Sequence record: NC_054919.1
Source of the DNA: Escherichia phage vB_EcoM_G4507
DNA: 64,000 nucleotides
Direction: 5' to 3' (one strand)
Shown here piece by piece: positions 5,178 through 6,192 of this stretch. Position 1 is the stretch's first letter. Each line of letters begins with the position of its first letter. A model generated the notes under the pieces. It was not told where the DNA came from. It searched no databases and saw only the letters and a program-made list of their open reading frames with translations. A program made the position numbers and the translations under genes.

Positions 5178-5253
5178 TGGTCGAGGCAGTAGGGATCGAA
5201 CCTACGACCCAGGACTTAGAAGGTCCTTGCTCTTCCTTCTGAGCTATGCCCCG
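5178..5253 (-). tRNA. tRNA-Arg (anticodon TCT)
   Basis: Hand-folded cloverleaf on minus strand: acceptor CGGGGCA/TGCCTCG, anticodon stem AGGAC/GTCCT, loop CTTCTAA, T-loop GGTTCGATCC, encoded CCA. Confidence 0.8.
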
Positions 5254-5257
5254 TAAT

Positions 5258-5333
5258 TGGGGTGACCGATGGGAGTCGAACCCATGACTACGAGAATCAC
5301 AATCTCGAGTTCTACCAACTGAACTACGGCCAC
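5258..5333 (-). tRNA. tRNA-His (anticodon GTG)
   Basis: Minus strand 76 nt: acceptor GTGGCCG/CGGTCAC, D-stem GTTC/GAAC, anticodon stem CGAGA/TCTCG, loop TTGTGAT, T-arm ATGGG-TTCGACT-CCCAT, encoded CCA. Confidence 0.8.
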
Positions 5334-5447
5334 ATTAATACCTACTCCAACAATCATGATGTCTTCACACGAAATTAAGAGAAGAGTGATCAGTTCAACC
5401 CCTATAATCGCGTCAAGTAGATATTAATGTGACAGTTGTCACAAATT

Positions 5448-5522
5448 TGGCGGACGTGATAGGATTCGAACCTATAACCAATCGCTTAACAGGCGATCGC
5501 TCTGCCATTGAGCTACACATCC
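5448..5522 (-). tRNA. tRNA-Asn (anticodon GTT)
   Basis: Minus strand 75 nt: acceptor GGATGTG/CACGTCC, anticodon stem ATCGC/GCGAT, loop CTGTTAA, T-loop GGTTCGAATCC, encoded CCA. Confidence 0.8.
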
Positions 5523-5526
5523 AAAT

Positions 5527-5613
5527 TGGTGGGGAGTGATGGAGTCGAACCACCCGAGTCGCAATGACAATGAATTTACAGTCCACATCGCTACCTCTAC
5601 GGGATAACTCCCC
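5527..5613 (-). tRNA. type II tRNA with long variable arm, probably tRNA-Tyr (anticodon GTA)
   Basis: Minus strand 87 nt: acceptor GGGGAGT/ACTCCCC, anticodon loop CTGTAAA on a stem with two G-U pairs, variable-arm hairpin GTC-ATTGC-GAC, T-arm GGTGG-TTCGACT-CCATC, encoded CCA; D-arm fold is non-canonical, so isotype is tentative. Confidence 0.55.
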
Positions 5614-5619
5614 TTAATT

Positions 5620-5694
5620 TGGTGGCCCTGGGTGGAATTGAACCACCATCTGGCGATTATGAGTCGCTTGCTTGAACCTTCCAGCTACAGGGCC
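5620..5694 (-). tRNA. tRNA with anticodon CAT (elongator Met, or Ile if C34 is lysidine-modified)
   Basis: Minus strand 75 nt: acceptor GGCCCTG/CAGGGCC, anticodon loop CTCATAA, T-arm GGTGG-TTCAATT-CCACC, encoded CCA. Confidence 0.7.
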
Positions 5695-5695
5695 T

Positions 5696-5771
5696 TGGTG
5701 CTGATTGACGGAATCGAACCGCCGACCTTCTCATTACAAGTGAGTTGCTCTACCTACTGAGCTAAATCAGC
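5696..5771 (-). tRNA. tRNA-Thr (anticodon TGT)
   Basis: Minus strand 76 nt: acceptor GCTGATT/AATCAGC, D-stem GCTC/GAGC, anticodon loop CTTGTAA, T-loop GGTTCGATTCC, encoded CCA. Confidence 0.8.
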
Positions 5772-5776
5772 AAAAC

Positions 5777-5866
5777 TGGCGGAGGCGATAGGATTTGAAC
5801 CTATGAGTCGCCGGAGCGACTGCCGGTTTTCAAGACCGGTGCATTAAACCACTCTGCCACGCCTCC
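5777..5866 (-). tRNA. tRNA-Ser (anticodon TGA), type II
   Basis: Minus strand 90 nt: acceptor GGAGGCG/CGCCTCC, anticodon stem CCGGT/ACCGG, loop CTTGAAA, long variable arm, T-loop GGTTCAAATCC, encoded CCA. Confidence 0.8.
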
Positions 5867-5868
5867 AG

Positions 5869-5942
5869 TCTCCATACAAGGATTTGAACCTTGGACCTCC
5901 TGATCCCAAATCAGGCGCTCTACCAAACTGAGCTACACGGAG
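5869..5942 (-). tRNA. tRNA-Pro (anticodon TGG), CCA not encoded
   Basis: Minus strand 74 nt: acceptor CTCCGTG/TATGGAG (two G-U), anticodon stem CCTGA/TCAGG, loop TTTGGGA, T-loop GGTTCAAATCC; 3' end followed by CTGG, not CCA. Confidence 0.75.
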
Positions 5943-5952
5943 TAAATTAAAT

Positions 5953-6026
5953 TGGAGCGGATAATGAGAATCGAACTCACATCATCAGATTGGAAGTCTG
6001 AGGTAATGCCATTATACGATATCCGC
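5953..6026 (-). tRNA. tRNA-Gly (anticodon TCC)
   Basis: Minus strand 74 nt: acceptor GCGGATA/TATCCGC, anticodon stem TCAGA/TCTGA, loop CTTCCAA, T-loop GAGTTCGATTCTC, encoded CCA. Confidence 0.8.
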
Positions 6027-6031
6027 AAATT

Positions 6032-6118
6032 TGGTGCGAGAAGTGAGACTCGAACCCACAAGGAAATAATTCCGCAGCATTTTAAGTGCTGTGCCTTTAC
6101 CAATTTGACCATTCTCGC
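6032..6118 (-). tRNA. tRNA-Leu (anticodon TAA), type II
   Basis: Minus strand 87 nt: acceptor GCGAGAA/TTCTCGC, anticodon stem CAGCA/TGCTG, loop CTTAAAA, long variable arm, T-arm GTGGG-TTCGAGT-CTCAC, encoded CCA. Confidence 0.8.
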
Positions 6119-6119
6119 G

Positions 6120-6192
6120 CTGGGAATAAAGGACTCGAACCTTTGCATCCTGGAATCAAAATCCAGTGCCTTACCAACTTGGCTAATTCCCA
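6120..6192 (-). tRNA. tRNA-Gln (anticodon TTG), CCA not encoded
   Basis: Minus strand 73 nt: acceptor TGGGAAT/ATTCCCA, anticodon stem CTGGA/TCCAG, loop TTTTGAT, T-arm AAAGG-TTCGAGT-CCTTT; only 1 nt separates it from tRNA-Leu. Confidence 0.75.

Follow-up and report, generated by a model that had tools for sequence, protein, structure and literature searches.

A conserved leader helix precedes a tRNA-His gene without G-1 in the T-even-type tRNA operon of Escherichia phage vB_EcoM_G4507

The tRNA array considered here is related to the tRNA clusters of the T-even phages. T4 carries eight tRNA genes in the layout Gln Leu Gly Pro Ser Thr Ile, segB, Arg, rnaD, rnaC; the layout of T6 is Gln Leu Gly Thr Met Tyr, segB, Arg, and that of T2 is Gln Leu Gly Pro Ser, an open reading frame (ORF), Met Tyr Asn Arg. 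The T2L region with a Met gene (CAT, not of the T4 type), Tyr, Asn, and Arg was described in 2008 by Brok-Volchanskaya (PMC2330249), and the homing endonuclease SegB was found to cut preferentially within the T2L Asn gene, with the T4 allele replacing the segment (PMC2330249). In the present work, we analyzed a 64,000-nucleotide (nt) stretch of Escherichia phage vB_EcoM_G4507 (NC_054919.1; ‘the window’), which carries a run of tRNA genes on the minus strand at 5178–6192, with emphasis on its tRNA-His gene and the 114-nt spacer located between this gene and tRNA-Asn.

A second system of relevance is phage T5 (NC_005859), in which the 106 nt immediately 5′ of tRNA-His carry the annotation ‘RNA III, stable RNA with unknown functions’. 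RNA III is preceded by RNA I, the end of which is GCCA, and the T5 tRNA-His is annotated from U-1. A note in the same record states that T5 tRNA-His with a swapped anticodon suppresses amber codons effectively, which suggests that the tRNA-His scaffold is charged in vivo. In Escherichia coli, the G-1:C73 pair serves histidyl-tRNA synthetase (HisRS) as the main identity element (PMC5499578); without G-1, charging by the E. coli enzyme drops more than 100-fold (PMC5499578, citing Himeno 1989), and U-2 and G-1 direct the RNase P cut at −2/−1 (PMC5499578). In the searchable literature, we found nothing direct on phage tRNA-His and G-1 or on T5 RNA III, and nothing direct on T4 tRNA and RNase III, for which McClain 1979 appears only as a reference in PMC4810235.

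ARAGORN returned 12 tRNA-like calls in the window, 11 of which constitute the minus-strand run (Table 1). Ten of these 11 genes passed the gathering threshold of RF00005 in Rfam (29 bits) with scores of 54–74 bits. The coordinates and anticodons were the same as those of the original prediction, which had been made by folding the sequence by hand. In the order from Gln to Arg, the intergenic gaps are 0, 5, 10, 1, 5, 1, 6, 4, 114, and 4 nt; the genes are thus as tightly packed as predicted, with gaps of 0–10 nt, apart from the 114 nt between Asn and His, which correspond to an ‘extra spacing pattern’ that had been listed but not interpreted. Reading of the 3′ ends of the 11 genes likewise bore out that an encoded CCA is missing in Gln and Pro only.

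Database matches to the 1.2-kb region were found in 974 phage records, of which 334 cover at least 80% of it in a single place. The best match was Escherichia phage ECP52 (99.8%), and the DNA identity over the 1.2 kb to many Tequatrovirus genomes was 98–99.8%. The annotation of Yersinia phage fPS-65 (LR215724) lists eleven tRNAs that agree with these in identity, order, and spacing, and the arrays of fPS-65, ECP52, and ACG-C40 are alike in gene number, order, and spacings, including the 114-nt gap, with no material difference; in vB_EcoM_ACG-C40, the segment comprising His and the spacer is 100% identical. The one-strand gene order, the position relative to the trna.2 to trna.4 genes, the DNA identity, and the presence of rnaD and rnaC downstream all identify the locus as a T-even tRNA cluster. 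The array is already known and annotated, and it is the standard T-even tRNA operon. The original prediction had regarded His, Asn, and Tyr as novel additions to the T4 set, a claim that fails because the closest genomes have these same 11 genes as their standard set. This allele of the T-even tRNA operon is well sampled, and no new explanation is required for the array itself.

The tRNA-His of the window is 80% identical to E. coli hisR, with which it shares the anticodon loop, C73, and CCA; unlike hisR, it contains a G4-U69 wobble pair. The main difference lies at the 5′ end. Whereas hisR has U-2 and G-1 ahead of G1, the window gene has A-2 and U-1 and begins one base later. Thus, three marks of a bacterial tRNA-His (the GUG anticodon, C73, and CCA) are present, whereas the encoded G-1:C73 pair with U-2 is absent. 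An alignment of homologues showed compensatory changes in the anticodon and T stems of the His cloverleaf, while the acceptor stem, C73, and CCA were invariant.

The minimum free energy (MFE) fold of the 114-nt spacer gave a z-score of −3.4. Its main element is a 19-bp helix, in which the 5′ part of the spacer pairs with positions −14 to +5 of tRNA-His, so that the first five bases of the tRNA are part of the leader helix. To examine covariation, both arms were aligned in fixed register in 16 distinct sequences, giving 19 pairs and 304 cells. The results showed that 95.1% of the cells were paired, as compared with 39–48% when the partners were slid, and that 13 of the 19 pairs change on both sides; none of 500 shuffles reached the observed value by any measure. 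A 10-sequence subset of this alignment was tested for covariation as well. G-U pairs occupy 37 of the 304 cells, indicating that it is the tRNA-sense strand whose RNA structure is selected. Inside the hairpin, the sequence is hypervariable across homologues, and no Rfam family matches the leader in the window or in T5.

Conservation of the spacer together with His extends, at 84–93% identity, to Karamvirus, Jiaodavirus, and related Klebsiella phages, and in part to Roskildevirus; the His module of these phages follows Gln, not Asn. The same helix design with other sequences was found in Winklervirus, Gualtarvirus, the Vequintavirinae KB57 and CR3, two unclassified large contigs, and T5. In most of these divergent hairpins, the 5′ arm has at its beginning the G73-CCA end of the RNA ahead of the leader; T5 and most of the other phages use this GCCA, whereas the window uses a separate GUCAC located 15 nt after Asn. 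The Tequatrovirus leader looks like a GCCA-type leader with an 18-nt insertion.

The specificity of the helix was assessed in a sample of 834 distinct phage tRNA genes in the compared loci (34 His and 800 others). Unrelated tRNAs returned by a generic D-arm DNA pattern served as controls, and fetching of relatives through a neighbouring protein gave 6 loci of IMG/VR only. A leader helix with 14 bp or more that takes in positions +1 to +5 was present in 17 of the 34 His genes and in 3 of the 800 other tRNA genes. All 20 hairpin-linked His homologues have T at −1, and nine His genes with G-1 lack such a helix. The co-occurrence of the hairpin and the absence of G-1 is an association and not a set of independent events, as the hairpin-linked genes form one related lineage. 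In the searchable literature, we found no description of the coupling between a G-1-less tRNA-His and a leader hairpin that corresponds to T5 RNA III.

The window leader fits the type represented by T5 RNA III, i.e. a segment of approximately 60–110 nt with a basal helix in which the upstream flank pairs with the 3′ end of the leader and G1–C5 of the tRNA. In T5, one side of this helix consists of the GCCA of RNA I, four unassigned bases (CAAU), and the first bases of RNA III, and the other side of the end of RNA III, U-1, and G1–C5. The likeness between T5 and the window thus consists of a segment of about 100 nt 5′ of a tRNA-His with T at −1 and a basal helix in the same register. The two differ in that there is no evident sequence similarity outside the tRNA and that stable accumulation is known only from the T5 annotation. 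The annotated T5 ends give 2-nt 3′ overhangs both on the RNA III hairpin and on the remaining duplex. These ends appear to fit an RNase III cut that would leave U-1 on the tRNA. The form of an RNase III substrate is present as well: the helices are 19–21 bp long, with at most one mismatch and about two turns.

The most likely role of the leader helix would be that of a double-strand-specific (RNase III-type) processing signal. In T5, such a cut would leave RNA I with a 4-nt tail for exonuclease trimming. In the window, the corresponding cuts would fall between 5426/5425 and 5335/5334, releasing a predicted hairpin RNA of about 91 nt (5425 to 5335) and giving tRNA-His a 5′ end at U-1. Knowledge of T4 suggests that the array would be transcribed as one polycistronic unit from Gln to rnaC, ending at the terminator-like hairpin, that host RNase P and 3′ exonucleases would cut this transcript into tRNAs, and that a host enzyme would add CCA to Gln and Pro. 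As a tentative proposal, which we hold to be possible though short of probable, a widespread phage tRNA-His lineage (T4-like genera, Vequintavirinae, and T5) may have given up G-1, with the leader hairpin and a double-strand-specific cut releasing an RNA III-like RNA and leaving a U-1 end. The extra 5′ nucleotide and phosphate for HisRS would then be provided without RNase P cleavage directed by G-1:C73.

Several further features of the leader were recorded. The motif CATCWTGATTG at 5348–5358, which is partly palindromic (ATCATGAT), adjoins the 3′ arm; it is kept in most T4-like leaders and absent from T5 and from one other locus (L133). The perfect palindrome GTGACAACTGTCAC at 5427–5440 overlaps the start of the 5′ arm and can form a mini-hairpin that frees the 5′ strand of tRNA-His in an alternative fold; it is absent from Karamvirus and Klebsiella-phage leaders. 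A 37-aa ORF at 5244–5357, read from the His leader, was rejected, as its second codon positions vary (V/D/A/G) and it reads through the tRNA. A RegB site (GGAG) in the 3′ arm was rejected too, because GGAG is missing in the leaders L112 and L138–L140. The fold upstream of tRNA-Gln, where a similar leader helix was sought, was not significant (z = −1.5). In Enterobacter phage AS6 (L014), about 115 extra nt at approximately 1390–1500, between Gln and the His leader, share AGTGTAACGGT with the start of T5 RNA I, and this stretch may be an RNA I-like gene in a Karamvirus. RNAfold of the argX-hisR spacer of E. coli K-12 (L149) showed that the 3′ end of argX, GCGCGCCA, pairs with U-2, G-1, and G1–C5 of hisR in a 9-bp bulged helix; this may be due to chance, as tRNA-His begins with UGG, to which CCA is complementary, or it may represent a weak counterpart in the host.

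The Tyr gene was the only array member for which no RF00005 match was listed; its best Rfam match was tRNA-Sec, at 25 bits and below threshold. The original prediction had noted a non-canonical D-arm and two G-U pairs in the anticodon stem, both of which we found in the fold and in the alignment of homologues, and had suspected a diverged or non-functional copy. This suspicion was not upheld. The Tyr query matched 1,493 phage records of several families, and the gene is identical to T6 tRNA-Tyr at 85 of 87 positions. We aligned nine homologues from T-even, rV5-like, Felix O1-like, T5-like, and Klebsiella T4-like phages. Their acceptor, anticodon, variable, and T stems are 100% paired. The D-stem proposed by ARAGORN (TCCC/GCGA, with a C-C mismatch) was discarded, as it is paired in only 69% of cells in the homologues and fails in the Klebsiella phage. 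An alternative D-stem, CCGU/GCGG with a normal AGAGGUA loop, is 97% paired and fits all homologues. With it, 99.5% of the cells of the cloverleaf are paired and 10 of the 24 pairs are compensatory, the stems covarying across four phage families. In this model, the acceptor stem and the D-stem are separated by four nt, not two, which is probably why the covariance model scores the gene poorly. The window alone has A at the 26th base of Tyr (alignment column 27), where the eight other homologues have G, giving C-A in the D-stem.

The T6 tRNA-Tyr was detected by northern blot, and its over-expression rescues T6 from the defence system Septu (PtuAB), which cuts the variable arm of tRNA-Tyr; deletion of the T6 tRNA region sensitises the phage, and T4, which lacks the Tyr gene, could not escape Septu (PMC13096335). 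The T6 tRNA-Tyr replenishes the pool that Septu destroys. As far as can be judged from its sequence, the window Tyr is a functional class II tRNA-Tyr that belongs to a phage-specific type, not a decaying copy. Some GenBank records label Tyr as tRNA-OTHER or pseudo; the gene, which is part of a published counter-defence story, should not carry a pseudogene label.

The tRNA with the CAU anticodon had been predicted to be Met or a lysidine-dependent Ile. The anticodon was confirmed. The identity to E. coli ileX is 77%, and the anticodon arm GCGACUCAUAAUCGC is identical. The gene is not the tRNA-Ile gene of T4, with which it shares only 47 of 72 positions. The pairs C4-G69 and C5-G68 are present, and the acceptor GGCCC pairs with GGGCC; Ikeuchi reportedly described these two pairs in 2005 as determinants for TilS. 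The gene product is most likely, on these sequence features, of the tRNA-Ile2 type and would read AUA after lysidine modification. For annotation purposes, the CAT gene is probably Ile, not Met.

Codon usage, the comparison of which with the host had been suggested along with the original prediction, was determined for 70 ORFs of the window (19,632 codons) and 64 annotated genes of E. coli K-12 (15,105 codons). The A-ending codons read by the eight T4-type tRNAs were enriched in the phage by 1.5 (CAA), 2.2 (CCA), 2.8 (UUA), 2.8 (ACA), 3.4 (UCA), 4.3 (AUA), 5.0 (GGA), and 6.7 times (AGA) relative to the E. coli sample. Tyr makes up 4.2% of the residues in the phage and 2.4% in the host, and Asn 5.8% and 3.9%, respectively (about 1.5 to 1.7 times), whereas His is rarer in the phage (1.3%) than in the host sample (2.4%). 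Codon supply therefore accounts for ten of the genes, but not for His.

We consider it very probable that the locus as a whole is a T2/RB-type Tequatrovirus tRNA operon that includes the His leader helix as a likely processing signal. A number of points weigh against this assignment and the processing scheme. The T5 ends are those of a GenBank annotation, and the start of tRNA-His at U-1 may be a convention. To our knowledge, sequence alone does not allow the sites of RNase III cleavage to be predicted. Few independent lineages are represented among the 16 hairpin sequences, the arms of which were anchored by motif by hand; for the most divergent ones, the pairing was in part known beforehand. 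In energy, the leader helix is close to the acceptor stem (−59.8 and −58.0 kcal/mol, respectively), and we rejected the idea that the helix is an absolute block to the folding of tRNA-His, as the two folds are only 1.8 kcal/mol apart. Given the loss of G-1, translation may make poor use of the His tRNA. Polycistronic transcription and processing are taken from what is known about T4 and would apply to the window by analogy.

Among other explanations of the leader, RNase P alone may mature tRNA-His at G1, and the helix would then slow or time maturation, or protect the precursor, in a manner unrelated to the −1 nucleotide. A terminus with U-1 and C73 that lacks the determinants of −2/−1 cleavage (U-2, G-1, and the G-1:C73 pair; PMC5499578) is in line with this explanation, as is the small energy difference between the two folds. 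It leaves unexplained, however, why the hairpin and the absence of G-1 occur together and why the annotated T5 ends match a staggered double-strand cut, and we regard it as unlikely, though it has to be taken seriously. We hold it to be rather improbable that tRNA-His is not a working translator tRNA but a poorly charged decoy, a regulator, or a scaffold of a stable RNA, and that the hairpin is an independent small RNA. The absence of G-1 in all homologues speaks for such a role, as does the T5 annotation of RNA III as a stable RNA with no known function; moreover, the phage uses His codons less than the host does, so that a supply of tRNA-His is not needed. Yet the cloverleaf is kept by compensation, the invariance of the acceptor stem, C73, and CCA is what synthetase recognition predicts, and the T5 tRNA-His with a swapped anticodon suppresses amber codons according to the T5 record note.

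The preferred reading, in which the leader helix is an RNA processing signal of the operon, also has to be compared with explanations at the level of DNA and gene content. The spacer could be an internal promoter, a terminator, an inverted-repeat scar, or a recombination site of a homing endonuclease, since endonuclease genes do insert in the array (T4, T6, vB_EcoM_11B_SA_NWU) and since the spacer contains the palindrome described above. But the spacer has no minus-strand promoter match, its sequence contains no T4 late promoter (TATAAATA) or MotA-box motif, and no T-run follows the helix. The 37 G-U cells would turn into C-A mismatches if the structure were that of the other strand or of a cruciform, and the helix always takes in the first five bases of the tRNA and travels with His across array contexts and phage families, which makes a DNA-level function very unlikely. 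Least of all do we favour the explanation that a T4-type set has here been extended unusually by His, Asn, and Tyr, with a decaying or non-functional Tyr. The eight tRNAs of T4, the failure of Tyr to reach the Rfam gathering score, the labels tRNA-OTHER or pseudo, and the A found only in the window, which breaks one D-stem pair, could all be taken in its favour. Since the 11-gene set is standard in hundreds of genomes, the Tyr query recurs in 1,493 phage records, the four other Tyr stems are fully paired with 10 compensatory pairs in the cloverleaf, and the nearly identical T6 gene is expressed and protective (PMC13096335), we consider this explanation extremely improbable.

With the operon reading retained, the remaining features of the locus were compared with those of the T-even phages (Table 1). 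The T4 cluster has the same genomic position, shares Leu, Gly, Pro, Ser, and Thr at 96–100% identity, also has some genes without an encoded CCA, and is likewise followed by rnaD and rnaC. It differs in having segB where the window has Tyr, Asn, the leader, and His, in its Ile(CAU) and Arg alleles (65–74% identity to those of the window), in the anticodon arm of Gln, and in the absence of an ORF between Arg and rnaD. T6 has its Tyr in the same place after the CAU tRNA, but lacks Pro, Ser, Asn, and His, and the window lacks segB beside Tyr; the published segmental amplification of Tyr-segB in T6 required segB, a gene that is missing here. In T2, Thr and His are missing, and an ORF follows Ser. 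The CAU, Tyr, Asn, and Arg genes of the window are T2 alleles, with 75/75, 86/87, 75/75, and 75/76 identical positions, respectively.

Table 1. Features of the tRNA operon and its flanks in the window (positions in the 64,000-nt stretch).
Feature	Position	Strand	Evidence and remarks
ORF at the position of T4 trna.2	6290–6583		Matches phrog_2023; upstream of the array
tRNA-Gln(UUG)	6119–6192	−	ARAGORN; Rfam, 67.4 bits; CCA not encoded; abuts Leu
tRNA-Leu(UAA), class II	6032–6118	−	ARAGORN, Rfam; CCA encoded; 85/87 vs T4 Leu
tRNA-Gly(UCC)	5953–6026	−	ARAGORN, Rfam; CCA encoded; 73/74 vs T4 Gly
tRNA-Pro(UGG)	5868–5942	−	ARAGORN, Rfam; CCA not encoded; 1 nt before Ser; 74/74 vs T4 Pro
tRNA-Ser(UGA), class II	5777–5866	−	ARAGORN, Rfam; CCA encoded; 90/90 vs T2 Ser
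tRNA-Thr(UGU)	5696–5771	−	ARAGORN, Rfam; 73/76 vs T4 Thr
tRNA with CAU anticodon, probably lysidine-dependent tRNA-Ile2 type	5620–5694	−	ARAGORN, Rfam; 75/75 vs T2 ‘Met’
tRNA-Tyr(GUA), class II, atypical connector and D-arm	5527–5613	−	ARAGORN; below Rfam threshold
tRNA-Asn(GUU)	5448–5522	−	ARAGORN, Rfam; 75/75 vs T2 Asn
Structured leader of tRNA-His, 114 nt	5334–5447	−	MFE fold, covariation
5′ arm of leader helix	5415–5433	−	GUCACAUUAAUAUCUACUU
3′ arm of leader helix (leader −14 to −1 and G1–C5 of tRNA-His)	5329–5347	−	
tRNA-His(GUG), C73, encoded CCA, T at −1	5258–5333	−	ARAGORN, Rfam
tRNA-Arg(UCU), T2-type allele	5178–5253	−	ARAGORN, Rfam; 75/76 vs T2 Arg, 51/69 vs T4 Arg
116-aa ORF	4809–5159	−	phrog_3355 (E 9.5e-55); inside the operon, between Arg and rnaD
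T4 rnaD homologue (species 2 stable RNA)	4697–4811	−	79% identity to T4 rnaD
T4 rnaC homologue (species 1 stable RNA)	4553–4690	−	97.8% identity to T4 rnaC
Intrinsic-terminator-like hairpin and T-run	4479–4502	−	Likely operon end

The anticodon arm is the only part in which the window tRNA-Gln departs from the Gln genes of T4, T2, and T6. Relative to T4, its anticodon stem is swapped with full compensation, and loop positions 32/38 are U/U, not C/C. The loop matches that of E. coli tRNA-Gln, the T4-type loop being the variant. The three array tRNAs that are absent from T4 (Tyr, Asn, and His, at 5258–5613) have G34 in common. Tyr, Asn, and His tRNAs belong to the queuosine family, the substrate set of colicin E5-type anticodon nucleases, a link that we note as a lead only. 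Asp, the fourth member of the queuosine family, is present in Klebsiella T4-like arrays as well.

Downstream of the array, a Shine-Dalgarno-like GAGG is located just past the CCA of Arg, ahead of the 116-aa ORF. The phrog_3355 gene follows Arg also in T2 and fPS-65, while T4 has no gene at this place. The twelfth ARAGORN call, a 94-nt ‘tRNA-Lys(UUU)’ at 4552–4645, was rejected as a tRNA gene, as it is the tRNA-like 3′ part of the rnaC homologue and should be annotated as rnaC. ARAGORN does not call this ‘Lys’ in T4, the rnaC of which matches at 136 of 139 aligned positions.

No segB was found at 5178–6192, where the ORFs are at most 86 aa long and overlap tRNA genes, whereas segB encodes approximately 220 aa in T4 and T6. 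Because segB is absent and the Asn gene is identical to T2 Asn, which bears the preferred 27-bp SegB site in T2L, the window locus probably represents, on the sequence comparison, the uninvaded recipient form. Endonuclease insertions in the array are found between Ile and Arg (segB of T4), after Tyr (segB of T6), and between His and Arg in vB_EcoM_11B_SA_NWU (OR062527.1, 1658–2408), which has the same 11 tRNAs and a 206-aa endonuclease gene. In this phage, His has lost its encoded CCA (GGTCACC followed by TTTTTT). Homing by SegB plausibly contributes to the differences in gene subsets between T2, T4, and T6, and may explain them in part.

The part of the array that is worth attention is the His module, i.e. 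an under-described conserved hairpin in front of a tRNA-His without G-1. It raises the question of how a tRNA-His without an encoded G-1 is matured and charged in E. coli, and whether the ‘RNA III’ of T5 is simply a processing leader for tRNA-His.

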